Part shown: piece after piece, positions 1 through 61,511 of the stretch
Layout of the letters: each line of letters opens with the position of its first letter
Position numbering within the stretch: the stretch's first letter is position 1
Source: Alphaproteobacteria bacterium
GTDB lineage: Bacteria > Pseudomonadota > Alphaproteobacteria > MPNO01 > UBA830
DNA: 64,000 bases
Direction: 5' to 3'
Assembly (NCBI GenBank): GCA_964291215.2
Contig: OZ219791.1
Location: 928,001 to 992,000 of the forward strand
Notes under the pieces: generated by a model
Seen by the model: the letters and a program-made list of their open reading frames with translations, nothing else
Databases searched by the model: none
Told to the model about the DNA's origin: nothing
Made by a program: the position numbers and the translations under genes

Positions 1-754
1 TAACGAGTGGCGACTCGTCGGAACTCCTTGATCTTGCCGAAGAACCGCTCGACCAGGTTGCGCATCCTGTAGATCTCGCGGTCAAGCGGCCGGGGCGATG
101 TCCGGTTGGATTTTGACGGAATGACCGCGGTTGCTCCTGCCATCTCGATCAGATGGCGTCGGTGTCGTAGGCCTTGTCGCCGACCACCGTCTCGCTCGAG
201 GTCGGCGAGAAGCGCCTCCGCCTGCGCGCAGTCGGCCGCCTGGCCCGGGGTCAGGAACACGGTTTTCACCCTCTCGTTCTCGCCAAGATGGACCTTCGTC
301 GTTCGTCCGCCACGGCTCACTGCGAAGGCTCGTCGTCCCGGGACGCCCCGGCTTGTGAACGCGCACCGACGAGGAGTCCACCATGCGCAGGTGAACCGAG
401 CGAGCCATCGTCGCTCCCGTCATCATCGCTCGTAAGCCTTTGAAGCTTCTCCATGCCCAGGTGCCGTTCTTGCTCCACCGGTTGAAGCGGTTGAAGCAGA
501 CGGACCGTACCGCTCCGGCAGATCGCGCCACGGCGTACCGGTGCGAAGCACGAAGAATATCCCGTTCATGACCCTCCGGTCATGCACCCGCTCCGGGCCC
601 TGGTGCTTGTCGGGAAGCACCGAGCGGAGAACCTCCCATTCCGCGTCGCTCATGTCGTGTCGGTCGCCGCTCATCCTTCACTCTCCTTGTGGATCGCTTT
701 TGACAAGACATGGCAAATCGTGCAAAAATGTCAACATTTGGGTACACACCCTAG
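1..754 (-). mobile_element. Degenerate IS5-family (IS427/IS1031-like) element, copy 1, cut by the window edge
   Basis: ORF 423-674 reads RHDMSDAEWEVL..DRRVMNGIFFVLRTGTPWRDLPERYG. The DDE part is frameshifted. The end TTTGGGTACACACCCTAG is at 737-754. Confidence 0.85.
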
Positions 755-1337
755 GCTGTGGACTCAAATAATTGGTTTGCGATTCTGCGGAGCAAGAATC
801 GGCTGGCAGCCAGTTGCACGGCGGAGAGGAAGTTCCTTGTCATAACGGGTGGCGACCCGTCGGAACTCCTTGATCTTACCGAAGAACCGCTCGACCAGGT
901 TGCGCATCCTGTAGATCTCGCGGTCGAGCGGCCGTGGCGATGTCCGGTTGGATTTTGACGGAATGACCGCGGTTGCTCCTGCCGTCTCGATCAGATGGCG
1001 TCGGTGTCGTAGGCCTTGTCGCCGACCACCGTCTCGCCCGAGGTCGGCGAGAAGCGCCTGCGCGCAGTCGGCTGCTTGGCCCGGGGTCAGGAACACGGTC
1101 TTCACCCTTTCGTTCTCGCCAAGATGGATCTTCGTCGTTCGTCCGCCACGGCCCGATTTGCGAAGGCTCGTCGTCCCGGGACGCCCCGGCACCGTGCTTG
1201 TGAACGCGCACCGACGAGGAGTCCACCATGCGCAGATGAACCGGCGGGCCATCGTCGCTCCCGTCATCACCGCTCGTAAGCCTTTGAAGCTTCTCCATGC
1301 CCAAGTGCCGTTCTTGCTCCACCGGTTGAAGCGGTTG
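751..1337 (-). mobile_element. Degenerate IS5-family element, copy 2 (5' part replaced by IS1634)
   Basis: Near-identical to 1-495; RNLVERFFGKIKEFRRVATRYDK motif; terminus CTAGGCTGTGGACTCAAA shares CTAG 751-754 with copy 1. Confidence 0.85.
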
Positions 1338-3190
1338 ATATTGTTGGTAAAATTGCATGATGGCCACATGAAAATGTTCCCATGTAAAAGTGAATTTTCC
1401 TCTTGACAATTCACGAGGCAATGCCTATATGCGTTGCCATGTACTTCGACATCGTCCCCAACCGCAATTCGCCCCCCGCCGTCCTCCTGCGCGAAGGATG
1501 GCGCGAGAACGGAAAGGTCAGGAAACGCACCATTGCCAATCTCTCCTCCTGGCCCATGGAGAAGGTGGAGACCCTACGGCGTCTCTTGAAGAACGAACCC
1601 CTGGTTAGCCGTACCGATGCCTTCGACATCGTCCGCTCCCTTCCTCATGGCCATGTGGCCGCGGTGCTGGGAACCCTGAAGAAGCTGGACCGGCGGATCG
1701 ACCCGAAGCCCTCTCCCGAGCGCGATCAGGTTCTCGCCCTGATCGTGGCGAGGATCCTGGCACCCGCTTCGAAGCTGGCCCGAGGGCTGGCCGAGGCCAC
1801 CGCGGCGAGTACCTTGGGCGAGATCCTCGAGGCGGAAGGGGACGAGGACGACCTCTACGACGCCATGGACTGGCTCCTGGAGCGTCAGGAGAGGATCGAG
1901 CGGTCTCTGGCGAAGCGGCACCTCGAAGAGGGCTGTCTGGTGCTGTATGACCTGACCTCGGTGTGGATGGAGGGACGAAAGTGTCCCTTGGCCCGACGCG
2001 GGCACTCCCGGGATGGCAAGAAGGGCAAGCTGCAGATCGAGTTCGGCCTTCTGTGTGATCGGGACGGGTGTCCGGTGTCGGTGCGGGTGTTCCCCGGTAA
2101 CACCCGGACACGGTGTCCTCACAGATCGCCACGCTGCGGGAGCGGTTCTCCTTTGCGAAGGTGGTACTGGTGGGGGACCGGGGGATGCTGACCGAGGCGC
2201 GCATCCGCGAGGAGGTGAAGCCTGCGGGTCTGGATCAGCGCCTTGAGGGGACCGGCCATCCGTTCACTGGTGGAGGCCGGCGATGTCGAGATGTCGCTCT
2301 TCGACGAGAGAGATCTGGTGGAGATCACCAGCAATGCGTATCCCGGCGAACGCCTCATGGTGTGCCGCAACCCGCTGCTGGCCGAAGATCGGGCTCGCAA
2401 GCGCCAGGAACTGCTCGAGGCCACCGAGGCTCTGCTCGAACCGATTGCCGCGGCGACCCGGCGCGACAAGCGCCGCCTCGAGGGGGCCTTGAAGATCGGG
2501 GAACGGGTCGGCAAGGTCATCGGCAGGATGACGAAGCACTTCACGTGGTCCGTGGACGATGACGGTGTCTTCACCTATGGGCGCAATGAGGCTACCATCG
2601 CTGCCGAGGCTAGGCTCGACGGCCTCTACGTGATCCGCACCAGCCTGCCGCAGAGCGAGCTCGACGGTCCCGGCACGGTGCGCGCCTACAAGCGGCTGAG
2701 CTCCGTGGAACGGGCCTTCCGCAGCCTCAAGACCGTGGACCTGAAGGTGCGTCCCGTCTACCACCGCACCGAGCCCCGGGCCCATGTCTTCCTGTGCATG
2801 CTCGCCTACTACATCGAATGGCACATGCGCCAAAAACTGAAGCCCTTGCTGTTCGACGACGAGGATGCCGAAGGCGGCTGTCTGTCGTGGCGCCGGCAGA
2901 GGTTTCGGCGAGCGCCCGGGCCAAGGCGGCAACCAAGAGGACGCCCGGGGGTGGCACAGTTTCCGTACCCTCATCGATGATCTCGCGACCATCACCCGCA
3001 ACACCGTGGCGCCCCGCCTTGCGGGCGCCAAACCCTTCCAAGTCACCACGCGGCCCACGCCGCTCCAGAGAAGGGCATTCAAACTCCTGGGCGTGCGCCT
3101 GTAGCGTTCCCAGTAGCGACACACCCGATTCTTTCAAACGTCAATACATTCATAATGATACGTCTGATCGGCGCTGGAACTTCGGGCTAA
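1338..3190 (+). mobile_element. Degenerate IS1634-family element
   Basis: Frameshifted pieces 1438-2191, 2113-2240 and 2243-3104: LVLYDLTSVWMEG, GHSRDGKKG, VLVGDRGM, LDGLYVIRT, VERAFRSLKTVDLKVRPVYH. Confidence 0.85.
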
Positions 3191-3507
3191 CTGGTAGGAT
3201 GTCGCCGGGTGAGAGTCCCGGCAGGAAGAGAGGCTAACCACCACTTCCTCCGTGAACCATGCGTCGCGAGGCGAAGCGTTGGGGAACGGCAAGCGTGGGC
3301 TGGGCTATTGAGCCACGAGATACTGCGAACCGGAGTGCCGAGGTCGTGGCCGAAGGCAACACCCTGCGAGCCGCGTTGGTGAGGGGGGCTTCGCGGGGTC
3401 TGAGAACCATGGCCGAAGCAGGGACCTGGGAGGTCTTGCCCCACTGTCGTAGAGGGGTCGCAGAGGAAATTCCGTAAACCGATGATGAACGAGAAGTCAG
3501 ATTCGGC

Positions 3508-4386
3508 GTGCAGCGAGTCTAGCTGCTGTACTTGCGGGTGTGAGTCCCGCCGGCGCAATTTCCAGTTTGGCGCCGTAGCATTGGTTCAGGGGTGACCGTG
3601 GACCAGCGAGCTGGGATGTAGAAGCCGTTGTGGGCTGGCTGGAACGCAGTGTCCAGCCGGTTCGGTCAGCCAGGGCGGCGAGCAAACCGGAGGGCCGTAG
3701 CGAAAGCGAACGATTGGATGAAGCCCCGAAATTGATTTCCCACATGAAGCTGATTAGTGGGGTAAACGGGAATGCCAAGGGCCTGCCGATAGCCCGATGG
3801 CCAGAGTCGATGCGGAAGAACTGGAGAGCACGCATCGGGTTCCCCGGTGGTAGAGACGGCGGCAATCCGGGACAGTACAGCGGTGAAAGATCGGAAGGTG
3901 AGGAGGACAGACAGGATGAAGTGACCCTTGAATGTCAAGGACCGCGTCTATAACCAGGACTGGGAAAGGACGCGGAGTCCTCCTGACTGGCGGATGAGGT
4001 CGATTAAGCGTTGACGGGCGGGACAACACAACCCGTCCTGAGCGAGGACCTCAGGGCTCAGGTGGCCTGTGCCGCGGTAGGTCAACGCCAGTGCTCAGAA
4101 ACTGGCACCGACCGACAAGACCGCGAGGTCGAAGGACGGAGCAAACGCTCGGAGATGCCGTGGGTACGGTTGGGTCAGCCTTGACCATGGCGCGTCCGGC
4201 GGAAGGCTCCGCACCGAACTCCAAGTGGGTGCCTGATGCTTGAACCGGGAAAACCGGACGTACGGAATTTTAGGGAGGCTGCTGGAAACGTGGTCTATGG
4301 TAGTTCAGCGACCCCGCCCGCAATCGAAAGAGCGGTGACGGACAAAGCCTCTGCCTACGGATGCGCGCGCCAGCGGCCTACCCGAC
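3508..4386 (+). ncRNA. Inner ORF-less group II intron nested in the outer intron (twintron)
   Basis: Starts GTGCAG; has GCGGGTGTGAGTCCCGC, a D5-like GGGAAAACCGGACGTACGGAATTTTAGGGAGG and a D6 ending CCTACCCGAC. Removing it restores the outer intron D3. Confidence 0.75.
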
Positions 4387-4479
4387 CATAGTACCGTCGA
4401 AGGCGGCGAACAAGGGCTCCTCGGAGCCTGCGGAGCTGCTGGAGGGAAGGGAAATGCGGTTGACCCGCGCCGCGCGCAG

Positions 4480-5610
4480 AAGCGGGTCACAGGCGGCGCA
4501 TACGACAAGTTGCGAAGAGGAATCCGGAAGAGCGTCTTGTGACGTTGCTCCACCACGTGATGTCCTGCACGCGGCGTTTCACTCCTTGAGAAAGGACGCG
4601 GCAGCGGGCGTGGACGGAGTTACGTGGCACGCGTATGCGGAAGGTGTGGAACTGGTCGACCTGCCGTGTGCACAGGGGCGGGCGCCTCCGTCGGGTATAC
4701 ATACCCAAAGAGGATGGAGGGCAACGATCGCTTGCCTCGGACAAGATTCTTCAGCGGGCAGTGACGGACACGATTCTGGTACCGCGAGACGGAGTTCCTC
4801 GGGTTCAGTTACGGTTTCCGGCCGGGACGCACAACGCGCTCGATGCAGTCACGGTGGAACGGCGGAAGGTCAACTGGATCGTTGACGCCCGCGGGTTCTT
4901 CGACAATCGCGACCACTTGGTCGCGATGCTCGAGAGACGGATCGGGGGTCTGATCATCAAGTGACGCTGGCGTCATGGAGCGACACCGGTGCTGGTTCGC
5001 CGCAGGACGCGATTGTCAGCCCCTGCCTGGCGAACGTTTACCTGCACTACGTGACTGGTTCCAGAACCATTGGCGCAAACGGATGACTGACACGATCATC
5101 GTGCGTTATGCGGATGATTTTGTGTGCGGCTTTCAGGATCAGGGCGATGCGAAGCGCTGGGACCTCGGGGAGAGGTTGGCTCACTTGAACTGCACCCGGA
5201 CAATCATCGAGTTCGGTCGGTTTGCGAGAGCGAACCGCCGGAAGCGGGGGCAAGACGTTCGACTTCCTCGGTATGACGCACTATTGCGAGCAGACGTGGA
5301 AGGGCAAGTTCAGGGTCGGCCGCAAACCATCCCGGAAACGGGCACCCTGCGGCGGATCAAGGAGGCGCTGCGCAAGCGGTGGCACGACAATCGGCACAAG
5401 ACGGCCAAGTGGCGAGTGATCAAAGGCTGCTACTACGCCGTTCCGGGAAGCAGTGAGTCCCTGCAGGGGTTCATATACCAATGCAAACGGCTGCGTGCCC
5501 TTCGGCGGCGTTCCCAAAAGGATCGCACCGAATGGAGGGACATGGACACCCTCATCGAAGCTCACTGGCCTAAGGCCAGCATCCGTGGCCAAACCAGCGC
5601 CTTGTCGTCA
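4480..5610 (+). pseudogene. ltrA: Group II intron reverse transcriptase/maturase, multiply frameshifted
   Basis: AAAGVDGVTW, RRVYIPKEDG, DKILQRAV, IIVRYADDFVCGF (about 5100), FDFLGMTHY in different frames. Confidence 0.85.
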
Positions 5611-5687
5611 GGACCTGAGGGAGGAGCGAACAGCGCAAGTCCGGATCTGTGCGGGGGGACCGGGGAAACCCGGTTCCCTACCGCGAT

Positions 5688-6168
5688 ATGGCGAGACCGT
5701 CACAAGGGCCTCGGCGGCCGATCTCGATGATCGCCGGTGCGGCGATCAAAGCGGTGATCGCCGGTGATCCCGAGCAGAGCTACGCCATCCTGACCTCGAT
5801 CCGGTGACCGCCGCGACCCTTCTGGATGCCCGAACTCGGCAGCCTTGATCGGGGTGGCGCCAACGACCACGGTGCTCGGCACATCCGTGGCGGGCGCCGA
5901 AGGCCACGCGATCTCCTGTTCATGGCCGCAACCGGCACGCTTCAACGCGGACCTGGTGCGCCTCAAGACTGCCGGCAAGCAAGGTCGCGATTGTCGCCGT
6001 GATGCGCAAGCTCTGGCGAACACCTTGCTGCGACAGCAGCGTTGCTGGTCGACCGAAGCACCGGTGAGTGAGCGAAGGAGACCACCCTCATGGCCCTCAC
6101 CCCTGCCGAGAGGCAGCGCCGCGATCGGGACTGTCTCGACAGTCTCCCTCTACGACACGACTTGGGGA
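5688..6168 (+). mobile_element. IS110-family element, 3' fragment
   Basis: Aligns with 20258-20793 (LIGVAP, DLLFMAA, AIVAVMRKL); begins directly after the intron 3' end. Confidence 0.75.
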
Positions 6169-6169
6169 G

Positions 6170-10130: not shown

Positions 10131-10398
10131 TGAGGCCCGGCAAGGGCGCCTCGGCCGACACCTTTCGCTTACCTCACGGCACCTGGATGTGTGGCAAAAA
10201 TGCCCTTGTAGTGACAGGATTTATAAAGGGCCACTTTCGGGATTAACGCAGCGGTTTTGCGACACGGTTTCCTCTTGCATTGATGCTCATGGAGCTTTCC
10301 GGACATGGCGCAGAGGCTTCCCAGAACGGCCCTCTCCCACCCCCGGTGCCGCCGCGTTCCGGTTGGGCGCCTGACGCAGGGTGCGCCGGTCTCCCGTG

Positions 10399-11943: not shown

Positions 11944-11955
11944 GTCGCTGGTCTC

Positions 11956-15205: not shown

Positions 15206-15207
15206 GC

Positions 15208-15990: not shown

Positions 15991-16479
15991 GTCATTTTCT
16001 CGCGATGTTGAGGCAGCCGGGCCGCGGCGGCGGAGGCTTGTAGGTGCGGCCCGGCCGGTCGTGCAAAGTCCTGCGGGCCCGCCGACCGGACGCTGCCGCC
16101 GACTGTACGCAAACGCGCTGTCGCTGGCAACAAACGCCTCGCGACGCGCCAAGACTTCCCACGCTGTGGTTGATGTTCTGAATGGCCGCTGAACGGGGCA
16201 CAAATTTACACATTCTTGTCAGGTTTTCCGGCTGCGGCGACTCGTGGACAGCCCTGCGGCCAGAAAGCCTGGCAGGGTTGGTAAGCGTTCGTTTATGTGG
16301 TGAGGTGTTGTTGTTTTCGTCCGTTTGACGGGCTTTTGTCAGGGAGTTCCAGCGTCACCCGGAGCGGTTTCGTGCACCGGGATGCGCGGTGAGGGGCACT
16401 GGCGTCATGCCGTGTTTGCCGCATTGGTTGCGGTTTTGTCCCGGCGCTGCGGAGGAGGAGCTGAGCGCCATCCTGTGCT

Positions 16480-16900
16480 GGTTGCAGGGGTCTGAGGGTC
16501 CGCTCCTTGCGGAGAGGGCCAGATGTCCTTCTTCGGCTTCTGTCATGTCGGTCGTGGCGGCCGCTGGTTGTTCCGACGCGGATCCGGCAGACGCCGCGGC
16601 GCGGGACCTCGACCAAGGTTTGGCAGGGCACGGGCGGGGTGTTGCAGCGCGCGGTCCATGCGGCGGTCGAGAAGCAGCGGCTCGCCGCATGGTAGCGCAT
16701 CTGCGGCGCTGCCAGGCGCGTGTATCCGAGGTCGTGTCAGCGGGCGGAGCTCGTCGAGGGTCTTCGGGGCGGCGGCTCGGTGTCCGACGTGATCAGCTTT
16801 GGGGCCAGCGGGGCTGGCGGCGGTAGAAGGCGCGGGCGATGGGGTTCGCTCCGTGATCGTCGCAGCAGCCGCATCTCCGCGACCATGAAGTCGCGCCCTC
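16480..16900 (-). pseudogene. DUF4338-like passenger gene remnant inside the IS66 element
   Basis: Fragments GRDFMVAEM, QMRYH, PVPCQTLVEVP..IRVGTTSGRHDRH and KPKKDIW resemble the DUF4338 segments at 8470-8700. Confidence 0.5.
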
Positions 16901-19705
16901 GACCTCACGGCGGCGCTGCGAATCTCCGCCGCCTCTCCGGGCTCACGGCAACCAGGGCGACAGATCGCCGGGCCGCCGTTCTCCGCGCAGGCGCCAGCGC
17001 AGAACGTCGAGGCCGCTCCTCGCGACCGTGCCGTGTACATGACAGCCGTCCATGCTGTCGGAACCGAAGCCGGGCTTCCGCCCGGGCCCCTGACAGCCCT
17101 TTCCCCGAAATTGTTGTCCATGGTCGACGAACACGCGATGGTTGAGCGCAGCGGCCTGCCTTCCGGCGCCGCTTTCGGAAGCCTCGGCGCTTCCGCAAAC
17201 AGCGACCGCAGTCTCCGGCGCCGCCTGCGCGGTCTCGAACGCCGCCGGAAGCAAGGCAGTCGAGCCGTGTTCAGGCAGCAGATCTCCGCGATCGACCCGT
17301 TCGTCCGCCCACCCCTCCTGCTGCGGTCGGCGCAGTCCGGAAAGTCGCGCCGACAATGCGCCCGGCAACAGCACAGGATGATGAAGGGCCACAGGCGCGC
17401 CAGCTTCTTGCAGGCGCCGTAGCGGTCGCAGACATGGGGGCGTCCGCGAACAGCTTCGCCGCGACCTCGGCGCTGCGCGAGGGAAAGGACCGCGTCACGG
17501 CTGACCGATGTCTGGAGCCAGGCGCGACTTCCGGACCTCCCTCGGGGCCTGGATGCATCGGCATGGCGCAGACCCTAGTGCGCGGGGATCGCGTCCCGAA
17601 GCGGCTCAAACAGGGGCAGCATCCGGCTCGCTGGCCAGCGTTCTTGGTCGGGCGACGCGGCGCAAGGGCCGCATGCACGCGCTCGTGCAGCACATGCGTC
17701 CACATCCGAATGCGGTGCCGGGAAACAGCCGCGCCGCCACCTCACTCGGCGAACCGGGGCAGTCACAGCCCCGGCGGACAATCCGCCGCTTTTGATCTCG
17801 ATGATCCTGGTGCGAACCGTTGGCAACGCAGCACGAGCAGGCGTCCTCCGCCACCTCCAGCCGCTCCTCCACCTCCTCGAGCGCCGGCCGCGGCCAGGAG
17901 TGCCGCACTGCTGGCCGCGCTTCGATGACGCCCGCTGCCTCTTCTCGCTCTTGCGCCCGTACGACCTGTTCGAACGAAGCTTGTCGTTCTCCGCCTCGAG
18001 CGCCTCGACCCTTCAGAACCTTCATCGCGGTCTTCAGGCTGGCATTCTCCATGCGCAGCGATACCACCGTCGACCGCTTCCGCGCGCCGGCCTCGGCAAG
18101 AAGCTGGCCCAGACGTGCAACCTCCTGCTTCAGCGCAAGAGACTGCTTCGCCGTCCGCCGAACTTCCCTGACCTCCGCACGGGCAGCTGACAGCTTCTCG
18201 CGATTGCTCTTGAAAATCGCCTTCACCCAAGTTGGCACTTTTTGCGTCAGTTGAAGGGGAAATTTATGCAGCAGCCCCGCTCCATATACTATATACTGGT
18301 GTTTTTTTATATATCCACTATATTTGCGATTTTCTGTCCGGAATGGTCGGTGTGGTGCCGGGATATTGCCAATTCGCTCGACCCCGCCGCCAAACCCGGT
18401 ATATCCGGAGCCTCGTCAACACAAAAGGCTCCAGACAACATGTTCATCAGGGCAACCAAAACCCACAGCACCGCAGACGGCAAACCCGTCCACCGGCTCG
18501 TGCTTTCTCAACGCATCGGCGACAAGGTCAGACAGCGCACTCTGCCTCGGCACCGACTATCCGGTGGCGCGCAAGAACCGGAAGGAGGTTGCCGCCGAAG
18601 CGCTGGCCACCCGCCGCTGTTCGAAGCCGCGTGCAGGCCGCAGGACATCGTCAACAGGGGCCCGGAGGTTCCGCGCCGACGCCCTGGAGGAAGACGCACG
18701 CAAATTGCGACCGTCAACCTCGACAGCCTCGAGCACGAGAGCCCGCGCTCGGTCGGCTGGCCTGTGCCTCGAGGCGCGATCTCGGCTTCACGACCTCGGC
18801 TTCACGGGCCGCGAGTGCGCTGATCGTCGCCAGGATGATCCGCCAGCGAGCGCTGGCTGCGCGATGACAGCGTGACCGCGGAGCTTCGATCTGGAGGGCA
18901 AGGCGCGCAAGACGCTGTACCGCATCGGCGACCTGCGTCACCGGACCGCCATCCGGAAAGAACTGTTCAACCACGAGCGCGCGCTGCATCCCCGACACCA
19001 TCGCCTTTTACGACCTGTTCACGGCCGCGCCGACGGCAAGCTGCCCCGCTTCGGGCGCTCGAAGCGCAATGATTGCCCCACGCTTGCGCGGCGCGGGCTT
19101 TCGGCGCAGTTGCGAGGTCTTGCGGGGCAACGTGAGCGAACCCGGTACGCTGGAGGACGCGCTGTCGAGGCTGGAGGCGGCCCGGCGGCGAAGCCGACGG
19201 CAGTCATGGACGCCGGCACCGAGGCGAACATCGCGTGGCGAGCACGGCTGGATCGCGGGCGGCGCCGCCCGAGGGTGGGCCCGAGGCTGATCACCAACCA
19301 CGAAGTGCAGGCGCCTTGCCAGCGAGGATGGCGCGGCGTGGTCAGCGAGAGCAGGAAGAGGGCGAGGACGCCATTCTTGGCCGCAGGGCTTCGAGGCGGC
19401 AAAGCTCCACCTCCAAGGGCCGGCGCTACGACAAGGTGCTGGAGAGCGGTCTCGAGCAGCGCTTCTCCACCGTCGCCCGGCACTACGAGATCACCGTCGA
19501 GAAGGCCGGCGCCAACGCAACGGCCGTGCGCTTCAGCCACAGACGACAAGACAACGCGGGCGCCTGCACACCAGCGACCGGGATATCGAGACCGTCCTTA
19601 TATGACTAGGTTTTGTCCCCTTGATGATGAAATCATCCACAGCAGTTGGGGGCGGGAAAATGTGGATAACCTCGACTATGGGAGAGCTATGGTTGCAAAG
19701 AGATT

Positions 19706-19739
19706 CCGCTCCCCTGTGTGAGAACGTACAGGGGAGCGG
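19706..19739. terminator. GC-rich hairpin (12-bp stem)
   Basis: CCGCTCCCCTGT-10 nt-ACAGGGGAGCGG. Confidence 0.35.
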
Positions 19740-19840
19740 GGATCAAACGATCTCCGCGGAGGCTGCCGTTCCGTCCTTGGCTTTATAGAGCTCGTTCCCG
19801 AGCGTGGCAACCTCCTTTGGCGTCCCTTGCGTCCTGAATG

Positions 19841-44785: not shown

Positions 44786-45150
44786 TGAACTTCTTGGGCT
44801 ACCTCCGCCAAATCCTGATCCTGGCTGAATGTCACGGCCACATCGAGAGCGCCGTTGCGTGCCATTCGCACCATGTCGAGACCAATCCGAAGGTCTGTTT
44901 CCTTCTCGCGCTGTGCCGGCACACCATGCGTCGTACCGTCCGGAAGCGGGACCCACTCGGAGCGCGGTTTCCGGGAGGTCACGAGAATCCCGACGCGGCT
45001 CATTGCGGTCAGGCACCGCGCCCGGCACGCCGGATCTTTCCTGGCGTCGGGGCATCTCCTCACCCCTCCGCAGAGGCGGGTTTGGCGTTGTGCATCTTGA
45101 TCATGTCGGCGGCGAGTGCGATCCGGATGGCGACGAGCGGGCTGTAGCCG
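44786..45150 (-). pseudogene. NYN/PIN-like domain protein remnant
   Basis: REKETDLRIGLDMV..DVAVTFSQDQDLAEV motif. Confidence 0.55.
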
Positions 45151-45199
45151 AGTGCGGTCATGGAGGTGAGATAGCTTGAGCTTCGGCACCAGGCCTCGG

Positions 45200-46224
45200 C
45201 TAGAGCGGGGTTCGGAAGCATCCGGACACCTTGATCCTGACCTTTGCCATCCGGATTTTCTGCTCGCCGGTGTTGTTGGTGAAGCTGACGTCCGGGTCGC
45301 TCATGAAGCGCAGGACGGACTCTTCATGCCTTGCGAGACGCTCCTGGAGGTTGTGCGCGTTCGCGATCGGTCCGCGTTTTCCTTTCTGTCGGGGCGGGAT
45401 TTCAGGCAGTTCCTTCGCCCCCCGGGTCAGGATGGTCCGGTAGCGCTTGCGCCCGGCCTCGTTCAGGGTCCTGGATGCGCTCTTGTCAACCCTGTGGCAG
45501 GCAGCAGTTTCTTCATCACGCGCGCCCGGCGGTAGCCGTTGGCGTCGACGATGAAGGTCAGTTCCGTCGCGGTAGAAATGCGCATTGCTGCCCCCCCGGC
45601 CTTGCGCTTGATGCGCTGACGGTCCGTGCGGTTCCGCCCGGGCTCGAAGTTGAGCCACACCACCTCGGTGCGGACCCGGGTCGTCACCTGCACGGCGATG
45701 CGGCGCCAGTCCCGCAGCAGGTCGTCGTACAACGCCGAGGGGCGGCCCGAGACCATCACCTGACACGGCAGACCCTTGAGCAGTTCAAGGAGTTCGACAT
45801 GGTCGGCTTCGGTGTAGTCGTGGCGGTACCGCCGGCCCGACCGACGGGTCGCCTGCAGGGATCACTGCAGACCAGTTCCGTGCCCCGGAACGCAAAGCCG
45901 GCCAGGAACGCGTGGGTGCAGCCGTGGATCAGTTTCACCGGATAGTCGCACCCGAACCCGTCCAGCGCTCCCGGTCGATCCCGATCGAGCGCCGGCGCCT
46001 TGCGCTTCATCAGCGCGCCGCCTCCCGGATGTGTTTCCACATACAGATCATGCGGGAGCTGGAGCCCCGGAAGCAGCTGGCACAGCCCGCTCGTCGCCTT
46101 CGATCCAAAGTAGCCCACTGGCGGTCCCCGTCGTTCTCGATGACCACCACTGAACGAATTGGCCTGCAGTGTCAAATCTCCACGAAAGCCCGTTCGTTGC
46201 TCTACCCCGACATCAAGCCGGAAC
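45200..46224 (-). mobile_element. Internally deleted IS66 (ISBst12-like) element: end + degenerate MTase (46118-45590) + transposase C-terminus
   Basis: SVLRFMSDPDVSFTNNTGEQKIRMAKVRIKVSGCFRT; degenerate copy of 57990-58649. Confidence 0.75.
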
Positions 46225-49200
46225 GATTACGCAACCTGATGTCTGGAAATTGTCGTGAAGCTGTCAGTCATCAAGCTGTTCCCATTTGATCTTGGTTTCG
46301 GTTTCCCATTTTTCGTCGATGAGGACTGCGGTCGAGAGGCGCTCCAACGAGGTGAGGTTCGGAAAGACCCTGACTTTGGAGGTGCGCCGCTTGAGTTCTT
46401 GCTGGATCGGTCGCTCGATGCCGTTCGAGGTTCGCATACGTTTGCGGTGAGCATCGGGCAAGGTGAAGACAGCGAGCCCCGCATTGTTTTCCAGCCAGGA
46501 AGCCTGGATGCTTGTCGCTGGCCACGAGGGCGCCCAGTTCAGCCTCGGCGGTTTGGAGTGAGGAGGCGTGGCTCCGAGCTGTTTTCCAATACGTTTCCTG
46601 ATGTCGTTGTTCGGTGCACGGCGTTTTATGCCAGGTGGAACTGGCAGTGCTGCCACGTCGCCGCGCCCAGCACCGTGCCGCTTTCAGCCCGGCATCCGAG
46701 ACGATGAAGGTCGTACCATGCAGGGCTAGCAAGCTTTCCAGGAAGGCTCTCCAATGGACCTCGGCCTCGGAGAGCGCCACAGAGAGCCCCGGAACGTGCC
46801 TGCAGCCCCTATTCCGATGGCCGAGAGTACCGCGACATCGCGCACAACGCCGTCATGGCGGGCTTTTTCATAGCGCGCATCCAGGTATTTCATCAGGGGG
46901 CCGGTTGCGCGGCGAGTTCTTCATCGAGCAACCTGGTGGCCCGGCTGACCTGAGAAGAGGACAGGCTCCCGAACTCGCGCATTACATCCTGCCGTGTGGA
47001 AACACCCTTGATGTACATCTCGGCTACGGCGCGAGAAGATCGCTGGCCGCGTTCAAGCGACTGGGGACGGATCGTCCCCGTGACCGTTTGGCACCTGAAC
47101 GGTAACAGTGGGGGTGTCGATCCGCTTGTAGCCGTTGGCATAGCCCTGTCGTTCCGGTGGCCTGCTTTCAAGTGCTGCTCGCGCTCGATTTGCATCGCAA
47201 GCTCGAAGAGCTGACCAAAGATCCGCCCCAGATCCGTTGCTCCGTTTGCGATCAGATGTTCCAAAACGGCCTCAATCGTCGTAGTGTGTCGCAGGTCCAT
47301 TCGCTTCCTCCATGAATGTTTACAGCTCCATGGGATAGCACGATGGCGCCGCGTTTCACTGGGGGGCTAGCCCTCGCATGTCACGGAAATTTTAGCTGGA
47401 CAACGGTGTTTCGGCGTGGCATAAGTGTCCCATGTCACAGATCAGCCGCACATTGCGGGACGAGGCAGCAGTTGCGCGGATCGCGTCGCTGCTGTCCTGT
47501 GAGCAGTTCGACAGCCGGTCGGCTCTGGGTCGTCTGCGAGGAGTTTGCCTTTGTCGACGCGCGCGGCCGTCTGCAGCTTGCCGGCTGCATGAAGGCGCTG
47601 AGGGCGCCCGGAGATCGTCCTGCCGGTGCCGAAGTCACCGACAATCGACCGCCGGCCTCGCCTGTTGGTATCGCTGCAGAGGTTCCGGCGCGCGCATTCG
47701 GGATCTCGAGATCATCGTGGTCGGGGATCGTATTGACCGAGCGGTCACGCTGATTGCGCGTGAACACCCGCGACGACCTTCGCCGGCTGCCAATATCTCG
47801 TGGGCTCGGCGCACGGGTGGCGGGGTTTGCCGCCGCCGCGCGGCGCGGGACCGCTGGATGGAACGACGGGCAGCGCCGGAACCACCTGCAGCGGATCGTC
47901 TGTCTGAGCCGTTTCTTGATCAGGTGCTCTGCCCGCCCAGCCATGTGCGCATCCTGCGCCGCGTGACTTCGAGGACCGTTTCGACCATGGCTCAGTTTTG
48001 CCGATGAAGGTTACCCTGCCTGCGCGCGGCCAACTTCCTGTGCAGGACCGAAGGCCGGCAGGACTGGGAGACGGTGAAGACGGTCTTCGTGGCCGAACTG
48101 GAGCGCGCAGGAAGCTGGGGAGGTCGATCATGCGCCCTCGCCGGGCGAAGGTCTGAACGACTGGGCGCAGAACGAGTTTGGAGGGGGGTGACAAGCGACT
48201 TTCTGCGCGCCTGGAGCGCCAGCCTTCTGGCGGCCGGTCAGAAGATCAATGCGTCTCCCAGCGCCGACAACACCGCGATCAATGCGTTTTACCGGATGGT
48301 CGCCCTCGGAGATCACGCCGGCGAACATTCTTGCGCCGCACCGTGAGCGCAGCATCCGGCGCATCCGTGGCCAGAAGACGGTTCTTGCCGGACGGCACGG
48401 ACCTGAACTTCTCCCGGCCTGCAGGTGAGAACCAGACCGGGGCCTCAAGCCTGCACGCGACCCTGGCGGTGACTGACCTGCCACTCGGGGTGCTGGGTCC
48501 GGTGAAGCCCCGGTCGCAGGAGACACGCCGCAGCTCGAGGGGTTCAAGGCGCTGCCACCCCGGCGGCAAGACGCGCGTCATCTCCGTCGGGAAGCCGACA
48601 TCTTCGAGCTGTTCGACACGCGCTTGCCCCGCGTCGATCTGCGCGCCAAGCATGACAGGGTGCTGAAGGAGGGAAGGCTGTTCGCCGTCATGGCCGGCGG
48701 CCTGATTGAGATCGAGGGACTGACGGAGCAAGCCAGCCGGAAGAAGGCCCGCGCGACAGAAGCGCCTGGCGAGTTGCGGTCCGTCACCCGTGACGGGCAC
48801 CGCCTCCAGCGCGAAGCCGGTGTCCCTGCACGGGGTCAGGGAGCGCCCGAAGGTGAGGATCCCGTGGTGCCTGCTGACCACCGTGCGGGTCGGCGAAGGA
48901 GGCGGCCGACATCGTCGGCTTCTACCTTCAGCGCTGGCGAATCGAGGATTACGTGCTCAAATCCGGATGCAGGGTGGAACACCTTCTGTTCCGCACCGGC
49001 TGCAGCGGGCGATCAACGCCGTCATCGCGCATCATGGTCATGACCCTGCTCGGCCGCCAGGTGCGAGCCGCAGCTGATGTTCACCGACAGCGAACTCGCG
49101 CGACTACGCACACAAGTACGCCCTGAAGGAACCGGAGCGTCTCGCCGATGCGGTGCACCTGGTCGCCCATCTCGGCGGCTACCGCAGCACGCCCGGGTCA

Positions 49201-49403
49201 CCAGATCATGTGGCCAGACACACCAGCGCCGCACTGGGTCACCAAATCGGCCGGGAAATCGGGTTCCGGGATGGACAAAGACACGCGTGAACACGTAAAC
49301 CATTGTCAACCAGATTTGTCATGACACGGCAGGGCTAGCCCCCCAGTGAAACGCCTCAAAGCGCAAACCTCAGACAAATTTCCAGACATCAAGTTACAGT
49401 ACC
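46225..49403 (-). mobile_element. IS256-family element (degenerate), interrupted near its left end by an IS4-type element
   Basis: IRs GATTACGCAACCTGATGTCTGGAAATT / GGTACTGTAACTTGATGTCTGGAAATT; EMYIKGVSTR, IVSDAGL, RTSNGIER..ELKRRT. Confidence 0.85.
47373..49332 (+). mobile_element. Degenerate DUF4338-IS4 element, copy C, with TSD
   Basis: Imperfect IRs; GGCTAGCC direct repeat at 47365 and 49333; RNHLQRIVCLSRFLIR, DGTDLNF, LHATLAV..LPLG, RLQRAINAVIA. Confidence 0.7.
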
Positions 49404-52456: not shown

Positions 52457-52484
52457 TCTGCCGCCTGCCGGAACGGGGAAAGAC

Positions 52485-55261: not shown

Positions 55262-55422
55262 ACCGGATTCCCGATTGATCTGAACGGTGCAGCGTCGATG
55301 TCCTCGTGCATTTCGGCGTTGATTGCAGTCGGGCTGTCAACCGGCGGCGGCCACATCGACAACGGCTGCCGTATAGTGTGGTTCCGGAACCGGCTCTCCG
55401 TGCTCACGCAAGCTCTCGACAT

Positions 55423-55899
55423 GGGTGAGAGTTTCGTATGGCACGGTTGCAGGCTCAGTACCATTTGTTCATCTCATGCGGCCAGTGCGGGGGTGTGATT
55501 TGGGCTGATGTTGTTGTTGGCTGGTGCGTCGTCTGCACCGATCATGGCCGTCCACACGCTCTCGAAGCGGCCGGCTTCGAGCAGGGCGCGGAAGGTGATT
55601 GTCCGCCGACGATGCGCCGGCGCATGCCGGGGTGTTTCATGCGCTGTGTGACGAGGGTCTTGTTTGCCGCCTCGACAATTCCCGAGCCGGTTGCTTCAGC
55701 GCGTGGTAGCGCATGCGGTGGCGATGGTTGTCGCGAAGGTGGTGCAGCGCCCGGGTCACCCTGTCGATGCCGTGGGGGTCGTGACAAAATCCTGTCTCTA
55801 AACGGGCGATTGTCACGAAAACCCGTTTTCGCCGCTGCCTCACGACCGCACAACCGTGTTAAATCAATGACTTGGATGCGCTATACGAGAACTGCACCC
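55423..55899 (-). mobile_element. ISKra4-like non-autonomous element (MITE), copy 1
   Basis: IRs GGGTGAGAGTTTCGTATGGC / GGGTGCAGTTCTCGTAT; TSD CTCGACAT; GSGIVEAANKTLVTQRMK remnant. Confidence 0.8.
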
Positions 55900-56069
55900 C
55901 TCGACATGATGGCGTTGGCTTGACTGAGGGTGATCATGGCTGGCCTCTGTCTCCCCGCTCCGTGAACTGGCAGCGTTCCCGGGCAGGCCTACGCCGCACG
56001 AAAGAGGCTGGTTTCGGTGGAGCGGGCGTGGCTCAGCTACCCAGCAGCATTGGAACTTCTCCCCACTTC

Positions 56070-56470
56070 CAGTCTGAAGTGCAACATCCGGCCCTCATCG
56101 CAGTGAGGGCGTAGCCCGAACGGAGATGAGGGCCGGGTGTTGCGCAAATTTTCCCCCTCTGTCCCTCTCGATTCCGCCTGGGAACAGCTTCAGTTCCTTC
56201 AACATCGAGCTTATGCAACGCCTTTGTCGGCTTCAAGCCACCATTTCGCCGTCGCGCGGCATGGACCCTGCTGCACGTTGCGGCTTCGGAACGCAGATGG
56301 TCAGGGCGGTTTCACTTCAAGATTACCTCCGTCGGCGATCCCAGGACTTTCCGAGTGTTGAGCCGATCCTGTACCTTCTGAACATCTTCGTTGCATATCG
56401 TGCGGAAGTCCGTGCCCTTCGGGAAGTACTCCTGCACCAGGCCGTTGGTGTGCTCATTCAAGCCGCGCTC
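56070..56470 (-). mobile_element. IS30-family 3' fragment
   Basis: ERGLNEHTNGLVQEYFPKGTDF..VQDRLNTRKVLG; TGAAGTGCAACA end. Confidence 0.7.
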
Positions 56471-56504
56471 CCCACCCCCAAGAAGGCCCCCACCCCCACA
56501 AGAA

Positions 56505-57964
56505 GGTACTGTAACTTGATGTCTGGAAATTTGTCTGAGGTTTGCGCTTTGAGGCGTTTCACTGGGGGGGGGGGGGTAGTAATTTGACATTATTGTATTG
56601 ATTGATATAGAAACTTCAGTTTCGTCCGGGCATCCTTCGTCGTGAAACGCCAGTCGACAGTGACATCGGCCGCATTGCGGCGCTCGACCCACGCCATGGT
56701 CTCCCGCAGCATGGTGTCGCGGTCGGGAATGCGTCGCCGAAGGCACTGCCGCGACAGCGCACCGATCTCGGCCATGTTGAGCCAGCTTCCATGCTTCGGC
56801 GTATAGCGAAACTCGAACCGCTTTCGTACCCGCCTCCTCGGGCTCGAAGGCTTCATACAGTGACTGTGCGTGTTCAGATTGTCCAGCACGATCTTCCTGT
56901 CGGGGAAATGGTCGTCGGCAAGCTCCCGGATGAAGTGCGTCCAGTCCCGCGGCGGTCGGTGACTTTCACCGTGCGCCAGTTCTCGTTGGGCGCAAAGGCC
57001 ATGAAGAGGTTGGCCTTACCGTTGCGCTCATATTCATAGTCGACCACCTCCGGCTGACCGGGGGATGCGGGTTTCCTGCTGCCGGCTGGTCTCAGCACCT
57101 CGTCCCTGGCAAAGTCCCGCTGATAAATGTCAAGCACATCCTCCATCGCCGCTACGAACTGTGCGCTCCGGTGCGGTGGAATGCACCAGTACTGCTTCAG
57201 CCACGGCTTGATCTCTTTTTTTAGCGTCTTCCTGACCGTTTCTTCCGAAATGCGCTCGACGATCTCCATCTCCACCAGACGGCCGGCAAGCAACTTCAGC
57301 GTCCAGTGTCCACAGCCCTCGGGCGGGGACGAACAGGGCGACCAGCTTCGCCTCCATCGCCCCCGTTTTGGCCGGCGGTTCACCTGCTCCTTGCGGCTGA
57401 GGGCGGCGTCCAGCCCCTCCAAGACGCAGCGCTTGCGCAAGCGCTCGACCGTCGCCGTGCCGATGCCCAGCCCTTGCGCAATGTCGGCATCGACAAGCCG
57501 AGCGCCGTCGCGCCCCTCAGCATCAGGACCTGTGCCCGGCGCCGTGGCAGCGCTGCCAGTTCCACCTGGCGCAAAACGCCGTGCACCGAACAACGACATC
57601 AGGAAACGTATTGGAAAACAGCTCGGAGCCATGCGTCCTCACTCCAAACCGCCGAGGCTGAACTGGGCGCCCTCGTGGCCAGCTATCGCGACAAGCATCA
57701 AAGAATGCGCCCGAGGGGCTCGCTGTCTTCACCTTGCCCGATGCTCACCGCAAGCGCATGCGAACCTCGAATGGTATCGAGCGGCCGATCCAGCAAGAGC
57801 TCAAGCGGCGCACCTCCAAAGTCAGGGTCTTTCCGAACCTCGCCTCGTTGGAGCGCCTCTCAACCGCGGTCCTCATCGACGAAAAATGGGAAACCGAAAC
57901 CAAGATCAAATGGGAACAGCTCGATCAGCTTCACGACAATTTCCAGACATCAGGTTGCGTAATC
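56505..57964 (+). mobile_element. IS256-family element, copy 2 (left end + 3' part), interrupted by IS630
   Basis: Ends match 49403 and 46225; 57520-57964 aligns with 46225-46680. Confidence 0.8.
56577..57525 (-). mobile_element. IS630-family element (degenerate)
   Basis: WTLKLLA, DYEYERNG, LDNLNTH, YTPKHGSWLNMAEI, VDWRFTT. Confidence 0.85.
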
Positions 57965-57989
57965 AGCGACGCTGCGTTGACCATCACCA

Positions 57990-58649
57990 TCACTCGGCCT
58001 CGACGGTCATGATCGCCGCGAGCATCGCCTGGCGCTCGCCCGGCGGCATCTTCCGGTACCCCGCCGCCCAGCGGGCGGCCTTGCGCTTGATGCGCTGACG
58101 GTCCGTGCGGTTCCGTCCGGCATGGCTGGCCGAGTGCATCCGCCCGGGCTCGAAGTTGAGCCACACCACCTCGGTGCGGACCTGGGCCTGGGTCGTCACC
58201 TGCACGGCAATGCGGCGCCAGTCCCGCAGCAGGTCGTCGTACAACGCCGAGGGATGGCCCGAGACCATTACCTGACACGACAGACCCTTGAGCAGTTCAA
58301 GGAGTTCGACATGGTCGGCTTCGGTGTAGTCGTGGCGGTACCGCCGCTTCGACCGGCGGGTCGCCTGCAGGTACGGCGGGTCGCTGTAGACCAGTTCCGT
58401 GCCCCGGAACGCAAAGCTGGCCAGGAACGCGTGGGCGCAGCCGTGGATCAGTTTCACCGGATAGTCGCACCCGAACCCGTCCAGCGCTCGCTGGTCCCGG
58501 TCGATCCCGATCGAGCACAGCGCCGGCGCCTTGCGCTTCATCAGCGCGCCGCCTCCGAGATGCGTTTCCACATACAGATCATGCGGGGGCTGGAGCCCCA
58601 GAAGCAGTTGGCATAGCCCGCTCGTCGCCTTCGATCCAAAGTAGCCCAC
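57990..58649 (-). CDS. DNA adenine methyltransferase (Dam/D12-like), apparently intact, within an IS66-like end
   Basis: GYFGSK, YVETHLGGGA, IGIDRD, LVYSDPPY; GTG start after GAGGA. Confidence 0.85.
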   Translation of the reverse strand: MGYFGSKATSGLCQLLLGLQPPHDLYVETHLGGGALMKRKAPALCSIGIDRDQRALDGFGCDYPVKLIHGCAHAFLASFAFRGTELVYSDPPYLQATRRSKRRYRHDYTEADHVELLELLKGLSCQVMVSGHPSALYDDLLRDWRRIAVQVTTQAQVRTEVVWLNFEPGRMHSASHAGRNRTDRQRIKRKAARWAAGYRKMPPGERQAMLAAIMTVEAE

Positions 58650-58679
58650 TGGCGATCCTCGTCGTTCTTGATGACCGTC

Positions 58680-58774
58680 ACTAAACGAATCGGTCTGCAA
58701 TGTCAAATCTCCGCGAAAACCCGTTCGTTGCTCTACCCCGACATCAAGCCGGAACCGGGGGGGTGAGCAGTTAC
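58680..58774 (-). repeat. IS66-like element end upstream of the MTase
   Basis: Terminates GTAACTGCTCACC on the minus strand; matches three other copies. Confidence 0.75.
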
Positions 58775-58801
58775 TATTTGGATATAATATAGGAGACGCA
58801 T

Positions 58802-58860
58802 ATGCATACCACGAATCTGCGCAAAGTTGGCGGCTCCGTGATGCTTGCCGTGTCTCCAGC
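58802..58860 (+). pseudogene. PemI/MazE-type antitoxin N-terminal stub
   Basis: AGGAG RBS then MHTTNLRKVGGSVMLAVSP. Confidence 0.6.
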
Positions 58861-60788
58861 GCTTCCAGGAGCGGCCCGTCCCGCTATCCGAGCAGGCGCC
58901 CGGAACGCGCACGCGATAATCCGGATCGATGCCGACCAAGTGCGAGCCGAAGGCGGCATGGTGAAGCTTCGACAGCGGTAGGCTGTTCTCCACGACGGGC
59001 TGGCCCATCGCCTCGTCCGCGTCGGAAACGATGTGCACCGCATCGAGAAGACGGGGTTCGCGCAGTCTCGACAGGGCGCAGCGTCCCCTGTACGCCGTGA
59101 TCACCGCTCCCGGAACGAAGCTTGGTGCAGGCACCGCTTCACGGTGGTCAGGACATGGCGGCGCTCGGACGCATTCTGCGCCGCCGCCAGGCTATCTTGG
59201 TCGAGCATGCCGAAGGTGAACCTTCTCCTTGAGTAGGCGGGATCCGATCCGGAAATGAAGCTCGGGACTATCGCCTGGTACCGGCTAGTGTTATGTCAGC
59301 AATGATATGTCGTACATTTGGTGCTAGACTGTCCGTCCATTCGGGATGGAGGTCGGAGTATGAAACGCTACGTGGTGACCCTGGACGAACGGGCAGAACT
59401 TTCGGAGATCAAGGGCTCGCACCTGTCGCAAAAGGTAATCAACGCCCTGCTTAACTGCGACGAGGGCGCGTTCAATGAATGCCAGATGACCGGGAAGGTC
59501 ATTGCCGAGATTCTGCGCATCAGCATGCGCAAAGTAGACCGGGTGAAAAAGCGTTTCGAGGGGCTGGAGGCGGCATTGGGTGGCCGGCGCCGTCCTACCT
59601 ACATGCGAAAAGCCGACGGCGTCTTCGAGGCGCGTGGCCCTGAGTTGTGGTGAACCGCCTGAGGGTTACGCGCAATGGTCGTTGCGGCTGCTGGCCGACC
59701 GCGTTGTCGAGCTTGGTTACACCGTGTCACACGAGACGGTGCGGCGTGTTCTAAAAAAAACTGCCTCAAGCCATGGCAGCGGGTGGGTGATTCCTCCTCA
59801 AGGGAACGCCGACTTCGCCACAGCGAAGGTACTCAATGTCTATCGCCGTCCCGCCGCTTTCCCCGTGGTCTGCATGGACGAAACGCCCCGACCGGCGAGA
59901 CACGGCAACCGATCGCCATGGCGCCGGGACGGGCATAACGACTACGAGTATCGACGTTGCGGTACCTGCAACGTCTTCATGGAACCCCTGGCCGGCAAGC
60001 GCATGACCAAGGCAACCGAGCGCAAGATCGACTGGGCGCAGTTCCTGGCCGACATCGCCGAGCGCTACCAGGATGCTACCACCATCACCCTGGTGATGGA
60101 CAATCTCAACACTCCCCGGCGCCTTCTATGAGGCCTACCCGCCGGACGAGGCCTTGTGGGACCGCTTCGAGTTCGTCTACACCCCCAAGCATGGCAGTTG
60201 GCTGAACGTGGTCGAACTCAACGTCATGATCCGCCTGAACCGCCGCATCGAGGTGCTACGCCGGGAAGTCGCCGCCTGGCAGGCGACCGCATTCAGGCCA
60301 AGGTGGATTGGCAGTTCACCACCGACGATGCCCGCGTGAAACTCAAACGTCTTTATTCGACATTTGACGAATGACAAGACACTAGGCGCGATCCCGGGAA
60401 AGTAGATGACCGGGACCCTGTTCTCGTACGCCGCGCGCAGCCACCGGTTGTCGGCCGCGTCCGGATTGGTGCCCATGATGGCATAGTCGACAGCCTCGCT
60501 GCCTTCGAAGATCTGCTGGTGCACATGGCGCTGGTCGTGGTACCAGACCCGACCGCCGGGTTTCGGGAAGATGGTCCTGATCGATAGCAGGAAGCGCATC
60601 TCCTTCGGCTTGAAAATGTCCCGCTGCCGATTGACGATGGGGATGCATCTGTCCTCGAAGGTGAGGCCCTGTTCGAACTCGGTCGCCCCTGTCAGGTGGC
60701 CGTGGACCTCGGATATCCTTCGAACCTGTTCGAAGGCGGCGAGGCGCATCGAAGTGTCTGCTCCGGGAAAATCGGCAAAATTCTCCAT
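58850..60788 (-). pseudogene. SRA-like/HNH restriction endonuclease pseudogene split by IS630
   Basis: N-half IFKPKEMRFLLSIRT..DNRWLRAAYENRVPVIYF; C-half LHQASFR..AYRGRCALS..LLDAVHI..LSKLHHAAF..GIDPDY; two frameshifts. Confidence 0.75.
59286..60384 (+). mobile_element. IS630-family element (degenerate) inserted at CTAG
   Basis: IRs CTAGTGTTATGTCA / TGACAAGACACTAG; WSLRLLA, VVCMDET, VMDNLNT, YTPKHGSWLN. Confidence 0.88.
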
Positions 60789-60999
60789 GGTGCGTCAAGA
60801 CGTGTCAGCCTTCCGATCAGCGCATGGTCCCCGTTTGTCGGCCCCGGAACAGGTCCGGCATGGCGAACGCAAGAGGTCGTGCTCCCGGGCCGCCGGAACG
60901 CCGTGGAGCCAACCGATCACAGGAAAGCCCGGCTTGTCCGGACGGTATTGCGGATACAGCGCCGCCGGGCGTTGCTTCGGACGTGCCGGGTGCTGTGGA

Positions 61000-61511
61000 G
61001 GGTGCAGTTCTCGTATGGCGAATCCAAGTCATTGATTTAACAAGGTTGTGCGGTCGCGGGGCAGCGGCGAAAACGGGTTTTCGTGACAATCGCCCGTTTC
61101 GGGACAGGATTTTGTCACGACCCCCGCGGCATCGACAGGGTGATCCGGGCGCTGCGCCACCTTCGCGACACCGCGGCGCCAACATCGACAGGGAACCGAC
61201 CTTCTTCCGCAAGCATCGCCACCGCATGCGCTACCACGCGCTGAAGCAACCGGCTCGGGAATTGTCGAGGCGGCGACCCTCGTCACACAGCGCATGAAAC
61301 GCTCCGGCATGCGCTGGCGCATCGTCGGCGGACAATCACCTTCCGCGCCCTGCTCGAAACCGGCCGCTTCGAGAGCGCGTGGACGGCCATGATCGGTGCA
61401 GACGACGCACCAGCCAACGACAACATCAGCCCAAATCACACCCCGGCACTGGCCGCATGAGATGAACGAATGGTACTGAGCCTGCAACCGTGCCATACGA
61501 AACTCTCACCC
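61000..61511 (+). mobile_element. ISKra4-like MITE, copy 2
   Basis: Same ends and internal junction as 55423-55899; TSD GCTGTGGA at 60992 and 61512. Confidence 0.8.

Follow-up and report, generated by a model that had tools for sequence, protein, structure and literature searches.

Short deletions of 5–7 bp in the repeated elements of a bacterial genome rise with copy number

Background

A stretch of 64,000 nt in the 6.15-Mb genome G000 (contig C2, positions 928001–992000; here termed the window, meaning the whole of this stretch) holds insertion sequences (IS) and group II introns that are broken by many short deletions, which raises the question of whether these gaps are genuine, on what they depend and by what process they arose. 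G000 is assembled in two contigs with 64% G+C, and repeat matches of at least 100 bp cover ~40% of each; from its two-piece transfer-messenger RNA (tmRNA) we take it to be an alphaproteobacterium. The deletions were first described in a reading of the window made without database searches (the sequence-only reading), the claims of which are taken up where the results bear on them. Among the congeners of G000, likeness in genes is 92–95% for G001, ~80% for G004 and ~75% for G002. Four sequencing runs (X1 to X4) are represented by contigs, which show which alleles exist and not how they are phased over long range within a copy, so that the phase of mosaic copies is that of the assembly alone; X1, X2 and X3 belong to one study, and X1 may be the source run of G000.

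Results and discussion

The deletions are real and centre on 5–7 bp

In the window, the union of each family's copies served as the reference for 13 element pieces (11.1 kb in all), which contain 119 deletions; 91 of these are 5–7 bp long, 8 are of 1 bp and 2 are of 2–4 bp. Two of the 13 pieces are free of deletions, and the piece at 3507–4386 has gaps of 1 bp only; with these exceptions the claim of the sequence-only reading that every family is affected holds broadly. That reading described deletions of 3–30 bp, and the deletions themselves are confirmed, their sizes falling in a sharp 5–7-bp peak with doubles at 11–14 bp. The gaps that it quoted were all found in the alignments: 23 and 7 bp in the putative IS110 pair (5838 and 20423), 27 and 5 bp in the methyltransferase pair (45632 and 58112), and 7 and 6 bp in the IS5-like pair. 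Genome-wide, 43 of 87 seed families (selected for a length of at least 400 bp and at least 8 long hits) supplied 1,409 copies amounting to 1.28 Mb, in which 9,369 deletion events reduce to just 1,241 distinct deletions, with 41, 160, 242, 131 and 50 distinct deletions at 4, 5, 6, 7 and 8 bp, respectively. A second hump at 11–14 bp consists at least partly of two adjacent events. Nearly all near-full copies examined in 14 families (375 of 386) carry, somewhere in the element, a deletion of at least 5 bp with a length not divisible by 3.

The union of copies differs from intact outside relatives by 3 gaps in 1,219 columns in the IS630 family and by none in 1,008 columns in another family, and the segregating gaps are therefore losses. 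Identical 5–6-bp deletion alleles are present in contigs of X1, X2 and X3, the unique flanks in X1 show 0 differences to the window, and a relative in X4, ~91% alike, retains the deleted bases. The gaps are thus not assembly errors, a possibility which the sequence-only reading had asked to be checked, and the deletions in the mobile elements are real. At one locus (L100:296–1460) the allele proportions in X3 are unlike those in X1, with one 6-bp gap unseen and other bases kept, and SNPs (single-nucleotide polymorphisms) like those of X4 occur at high depth; either sweeps after the divergence of the strains or the presence of a further subfamily or strain may account for this.

Deletion load depends on being repeated

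The number of 5–7-bp gaps per substitution rises roughly tenfold, from 0.030 in sequences of two copies through 0.048 (3–4 copies), 0.098 (5–10) and 0.161 (11–30) to 0.284 (more than 30), as measured on all 70 two-copy pairs and on 90 pairs from each other class at a divergence of no more than 10%; the low-copy classes contain working genes, which lowers their figure. Gaps of 1 bp are flat across the copy classes (0.8–1.3 per kb), and these pairs show no increase of substitutions per kb from the low to the high copy classes. In terms of density, single-copy noncoding DNA carries ~0.8 gaps of 5–7 bp per kb versus 8–38 per kb in the elements. Deletion load thus depends on being repeated, as the sequence-only reading had proposed. 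The repeated host gene family F15 (G000:C2:34820–36860), adhesin-like by the look of its sequence alone, has 6-bp gaps at five sites in 7–8 of its 9 copies, so mobility is not required. This family has long, repeat-rich domains, and its in-frame gaps are mostly multiples of 3.

The background in single-copy DNA was assessed by pairwise comparison with G001, unpolarised by a third genome, of which 1.45 Mb of ~5.0 Mb was compared and 978 kb aligned to G000. In 61.4 kb of strictly single-copy noncoding DNA, 48 gaps of 5–7 bp lie in G000 and 9 in G001, while gaps of 1–4 bp are even, at 177 and 174 (Fisher p=1e-6 for the contrast). In-frame genes (560 kb) have 37 gaps of 6 bp in G000 and 1 in G001, and 65 genes with a net frameshift have no more than ~3 deletions of at least 5 bp per kb. 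The ~36 kb of host DNA in the window has 9 gaps of 5–7 bp and its G001 counterpart 0, so the host genes are not untouched, as they had at first appeared. These sparse gaps show that a background process exists, at a level ~10–45 times below that of the elements. A general deletion bias visible only in neutral DNA, the other option offered by the sequence-only reading, fits this low background and does not explain the load of the elements.

Many copies hold the same deletions

In 10 families of at least 16 copies there are 374 deletions of 5–7 bp, of which 57 are singletons and 123 occur in at least 70% of copies. In the same families, singletons account for 2,260 of the 4,038 minor alleles of SNPs and for 49 of the 77 deletions of 1 bp. 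In two families with outgroups, a third having been excluded because its outgroup is too distant, the frequency of the derived state averages 0.57 over 63 deletions and 0.25 over 359 SNPs, sites that are not independent. The shift of these spectra relative to SNPs favours a deletion drive and gives an indirect sign that conversion may run towards the deletion. Neither the recurrence of the same deletions across tens of copies nor the involvement of a repeated host family had been noticed in the sequence-only reading.

The copies are mosaics of deletion states. Four-gamete failures between pairs of SNPs rise from 7% at less than 8 bp to 49% at more than 256 bp, a decay of linkage with distance that makes gene conversion among copies visible; for deletion–SNP pairs they already stand at 34% below 8 bp. 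Different alleles seldom overlap (19 overlapping pairs among 367 shared deletions), and one allele per site is usual. Two group II intron subfamilies ~12% apart have most of their deletions in common, frameshifting ones included, and their diagnostic SNPs fall at the three codon positions in the ratio 30/24/94, a third-position bias which indicates that the subfamilies split under purifying selection, while functional. When the intron subfamilies are taken together with a pair from IS66, the other subfamily also has the deletion, at a frequency of at least 20%, at 36 of 55 common sites, and this sharing rises with distance to the nearest diagnostic SNP (17 of 30, 13 of 18 and 6 of 7). Since the split, then, the gaps have either been transferred or arisen anew, unaccompanied by the neighbouring SNPs. 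On diverged local haplotypes the deletion is wholly absent at 13 of 26 sites. The 13 copies of the young family F6 (G000:C1:476940–479300 and 12 others) diverge by 0.16%, have 8-bp target duplications and carry 12 fixed deletions relative to an intact relative; by its sequence, F6 appears to have either moved recently in trans or been fully homogenised.

The size peak in other genomes

In a 500-kb sample of the 6.1-Mb genome G002, distinct gaps at 4, 5, 6, 7 and 8 bp number 11, 55, 64, 12 and 3, and 45 kb of IS loci in G004 gave 13 gaps at 5–8 bp and none at 2–4 bp, with four IS630 copies in that genome lacking gaps. The compared part of G001 has almost no assembled repeats. In five other assemblies, copies of an IS1634-like element (2–28 copies) have 0.02–0.92 gaps per kb and no peak; this control was found via an intact protein and so leans to intact copies. 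G002 also contains a tandem array (L116, G002:C1:2000001–2020000) of about four related 1.6-kb elements with many 5–6-bp gaps, and G004 has loci related to the methyltransferase-bearing IS ends of the window.

Junctions and sequence preference

The sequence-only reading placed short direct repeats at the ends of the deletions, and set chance-level microhomology as a check. Among 365 shared 5–7-bp deletions of G000, microhomology is absent in 29%, of one base in 24% and of at least three bases in 27%, against chance expectations of 52%, 29% and 7.6%. In the window, 45 of the 91 events have 0–1 bp and 26 have at least 3 bp. Direct repeats are accordingly enriched in G000 and were overstated as a rule, and in G002 86 clean events lie at chance level (45, 30, 8, 1, 0 and 2 by length), which makes microhomology a secondary feature.

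The shared deletions have an end motif, in which the deleted piece starts with not-C followed by a pyrimidine and ends with a purine followed by not-G. It is present in 47 of 106 events without microhomology versus 14% in the null, this being the set from which the pattern was derived, and in 50% versus 23% of events with one base of microhomology (n=86). It is not a mark of singletons (2 of 23) or of single-copy deletions (2 of 17). The deleted pieces of G002 open with ATC on one of the strands (0.69 for A, 0.83 for T and 0.65 for C). No sense-strand bias was found (7 versus 12 in G000, 21 versus 13 in G002, p=0.23, with the strand taken from a rough codon score). A classifier on local sequence reached a held-out area under the curve (AUC) of 0.81–0.87, and 32 of its top 269 among 45,107 candidate sites are real, such that local sequence predicts deletion sites only partly.

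Origin of the deletions

The explanation that we favour, and to which we give even chances of being right or wrong, is that a deletion-biased gene conversion acting on gaps only drives rare 5–7-bp deletions through families of repeats. The initial deletions would arise anywhere in the genome. RecA would then pair a full strand with the deleted strand of another copy, and the surplus 5–7 nt would loop out of the heteroduplex beyond the reach of MutS, which recognises loops of up to 4 nt (PMC8235422). A nuclease with a weak sequence preference would excise the loop within a patch of less than ~8 nt, with the shorter strand presumably serving as splint. A family of N copies would thereby sample N times more new deletions and ratchet them to fixation, until no working transposase remained. 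Open reading frames for MutS, MutL, RecA, UvrC, RNase HII, RecJ, ExoVII and RuvC are present in G000; a causal gene for the deletions was not found in this genome.

Several observations weigh against this explanation. A donor copy for the shared deletions is present in the high-copy families, whereas for two-copy elements no donor now exists: the copies of one group II intron pair, with 45 substitutions between them, have 31 and 4 gaps, and those of an IS pair, with 21 substitutions, have 13 and 2. For such private deletions, conversion needs donor copies that have since been lost. Where alleles of different length overlap, 14 of 15 pairs have one end in common (5.4 expected), as if a single site had been cut repeatedly, and the AUC reflects a real site preference. 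In a flank-triplet test on tightly linked flanking SNPs, a deletion showed four gametes with both flanks in just 1 of 210 cases (SNPs did so in 3 of 4,782), and this test thus rarely caught hopping between haplotypes that are well separated. Deletion-biased conversion also leaves the fall-off above 7–8 bp unexplained.

The common ends and the two-copy pairs, in which deletions on one of the branches are about as many as substitutions, lead to the strongest alternative, a tentative one in our estimate, in which excision is template-free and triggered by pairing in the manner of repeat-induced point mutation (RIP): a nuclease would cut at a preferred site and again 5–7 nt on, the ends would be sealed, every copy would be struck independently at the same hot sites, and two copies would suffice. 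This process would fit the strong one-ended motif in G002, the classifier result, and the deletions shared by subfamilies ~12% apart without transfer of SNPs 3–5 bp away, and it fits the copy-number dose as well. It sits poorly with the very same breakpoints in tens of copies when lengths vary from 5 to 7 bp between sites, and with deletions that one subfamily commonly has and the other seldom or never, although the local sequence is identical in both. The elements have 57 singleton deletions per 2,260 singleton SNPs, which is of the same order as the single-copy figure (48 per ~3,600 lineage substitutions), and a candidate enzyme was not found. Taken to its full extent, it would be a genus-level alphaproteobacterial defence that senses paired repeats and excises 5–7 bases at preferred sites, template-free, with a dedicated nuclease–ligase step, nearly all high-copy elements having been inactivated; we regard this as possible, though doubtful. 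Of the RIP analogy drawn in the sequence-only reading, the repeat dependence is retained and the template-free form survives as this rival, while the microhomology route is not supported. Conversion and template-free excision could also act together.

A general 5–7-bp mutator combined with history appears unlikely. Under it, a genome-wide rate or a past burst produces the deletions, deleted master copies are amplified in trans, and unbiased conversion shuffles the result. The same size excess in single-copy DNA, the gaps in low-copy remnants, and F6, in which near-identical copies share fixed deletions, a pattern to be expected if a deleted master was amplified, all suit this account. It offers no explanation of the frequency spectrum shifted relative to SNPs, of the copy-number dose alongside flat 1-bp gaps, of frameshifting gaps common to subfamilies that split while functional, or of a motif limited to shared events.

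Double-strand cuts guided by Argonaute or CRISPR (clustered regularly interspaced short palindromic repeats) and repaired by microhomology-mediated or non-homologous end joining are very improbable. Microhomology of at least 3 bp is enriched 3.5-fold in G000 and two cas1 loci exist there, but 53% of shared events have 0–1 bp and the chance level in G002 largely refutes this route, which was the mechanism put forward by the sequence-only reading. Ku was not found in any of the five genomes searched, nor an ATP-dependent (LigD-type) ligase in G000 to G004. A Piwi domain was not found in G000, where the search for pPIWI-RE was uninformative (its control was silent) and short prokaryotic Argonautes were not searched for. 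Among 18 candidate spacers, 16 of them from one clear array, none had a second hit in G000. Adjoining one cas1 is a CRISPR array (G000:C2:2068487–2069553) in which 17 repeats of 36 nt alternate with 30-nt spacers, presumably type II by these sizes.

An assembly or polishing artefact, which the assembly-based phase of the copies would allow, is scarcely credible given the same alleles in X1 to X3, the identical unique flanks in X1, the size peak in the separate assembly of G002 and the low gap densities of the five other assemblies.

Further candidates were rejected. Tandem duplication instead of deletion is ruled out by the intact outgroups and run X4. Selection against the transposase does not account for in-frame 6-bp gaps that spread like those of 5 and 7 bp, or for dozens of gaps per copy. 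An RNA route (an RNase E-like cut followed by reverse transcription) is rejected for lack of sense-strand bias. Mismatch-centred excision finds no clear enrichment of SNPs in the deleted pieces (0.146 versus 0.124, inside the flank range), and hairpin-loop excision finds no notable signal of folding or complementarity. As for a TopIB or ribonucleotide route, TopIB was not found in G000 and RNase HII is present; NucS was likewise not found in G000. DprA has no match above the cut-off in G000 and has matches in all four congeners, which suggests from sequence that natural transformation may have been lost in G000.

Elements of the window

The elements of the window are listed in Table 1. The IS5 label rests on a weak DDE_Tnp_1_2 match in copy 2 and on the sequence-only reading, and the IS1634-like label, taken from the protein, is putative. 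The paired ends at 45597–46224 and 58022–58773 hold a small gene for a D12-class adenine methyltransferase (weak Pfam match). A single contig of run X4 spans the IS block at 16150–21821 as an empty site, and these insertions are therefore younger than a split of ~4%. One IS block had no close relative in a DNA search of 401 genomes of the class; sponge and marine metagenomes are named among sequence matches of small share, which do not show the habitat, and no RNA data set is listed among the matches. The broken gene at 58854–60865 is 80–84% like its G001 counterpart, and its neighbours are 93% alike.

Table 1. Coordinates of mobile elements and of the control gene in the window
Feature	Position	Strand	Remarks
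IS5-like element, partial copy 1 (F21)	1..494	-	6 deletions of 5–7 bp
IS5-like element, copy 2 (F21)	752..1338	-	6 deletions of 5–7 bp
IS of family F4, diverged copy	1423..3185	-	7 deletions
Group II intron (F0, minority subfamily)	3185..5695	+	Rfam group-II-D1D4-6 at 3212–3408; element F25 inserted at 3507–4386; 25 deletions in 1.28 kb of reverse transcriptase region
Putative IS110 remnant (label from sequence-only reading)	5688..6169	-	pairs with 20264–20793
IS of family F5	16284..21740	-	15 deletions in 1.6 kb; composite F7 inserted at 18225–21181
IS1634-like transposase remnant	18225..19598	+	52 gaps, 330 bp in total, versus intact relative
IS66-family piece and methyltransferase-bearing element end	45072..46224	.	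pairs with 58022–58773
IS of family F11	46225..47373	+	21 deletions in 1.14 kb, 26 substitutions
Element F2	47367..49341	-	~30 gap sites, patchwork among near-identical copies genome-wide
IS piece cluster (F32, F13, F12, F11, methyltransferase-bearing end)	55424..58773	.	
IS630-family copy (F16)	59285..60408	+	20 gaps, 121 bp in total, versus intact relative, nearly all 5–7 bp
Single-copy broken gene, divided by IS630 copy	58854..60865	-	control; few short gaps
F32 element piece	61000..61511	+	inverted partner is 55423–55899

Comparison with known systems

Bacterial IS copies are usually young and identical, or are removed by large deletions. Here, the process frameshifts nearly every copy of the common families yet leaves the copies in place, so that the success of an IS family becomes the cause of its death. 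If conversion is responsible, bacteria have a molecular drive that does for indels what GC-biased conversion does for bases, and the repair of loops beyond MutS reach can be read out in nature. Under the template-free reading, the process would be the first bacterial analogue of RIP and categorically new. In the full-text literature, mostly excluding subscription papers and supplements, no size-restricted, copy-number-dependent deletion load in bacterial repeats was found described. In either case, any complete genome can be screened for the signature, which makes the question directly testable and allows the gene to be hunted by comparison.

RIP in fungi produces C-to-T transitions in a dinucleotide context, requires a methyltransferase-like protein (RID/DIM-2) and a premeiotic, sexual stage, and is template-free. 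As in RIP, repeats in G000, whether mobile or not, are mutated far above single-copy DNA, the local sequence has an influence on where, and transposons are killed. In contrast to the C-to-T changes of RIP, the repeat-dependent lesions here are short deletions, with identical alleles among copies.

The neutral DNA of bacterial pseudogenes also shrinks by small deletions, partly at short repeats; in one study, 396 deletions in 151 pseudogenes follow a power law in size with an excess at multiples of 3 (PMC6054270). In G000, deletion counts neither fall with length in the manner of such a general power-law bias nor ignore copy number, deletions of 2–4 bp are scarce, and those of 5 and 7 bp are as driven as those of 6 bp. 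The IS of Wolbachia resemble those described here in having many non-functional copies in one bacterium with conversion reported between them, but their decay is by substitutions and deletions, and the accessible portion of that paper states no size peak or deletion drive (PMC3205602). In pneumococcal transformation homologous recombination likewise favours the shorter allele, although the asymmetry operates between cells and on kilobase islands (PMC5850275), not on 5–7 bp between paralogues, and G000 has no DprA match over the cut-off. In its working the process resembles nonallelic gene conversion in Drosophila and primates, which is deletion-biased ~3.4-fold (Assis and Kondrashov 2012, PMC3280953). 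There, as here, paralogues come to hold the same deletions, deletions beat insertions and copies shrink together, and G000 shows both exchange between paralogues and identical indel states. That system concerns eukaryotic pairs, with no narrow size window in the text available, whereas the deletions described here are bacterial, confined to 5–7(8) bp, marked by an end motif and scaled to copy number, and they reach up to 38 gaps per kb.

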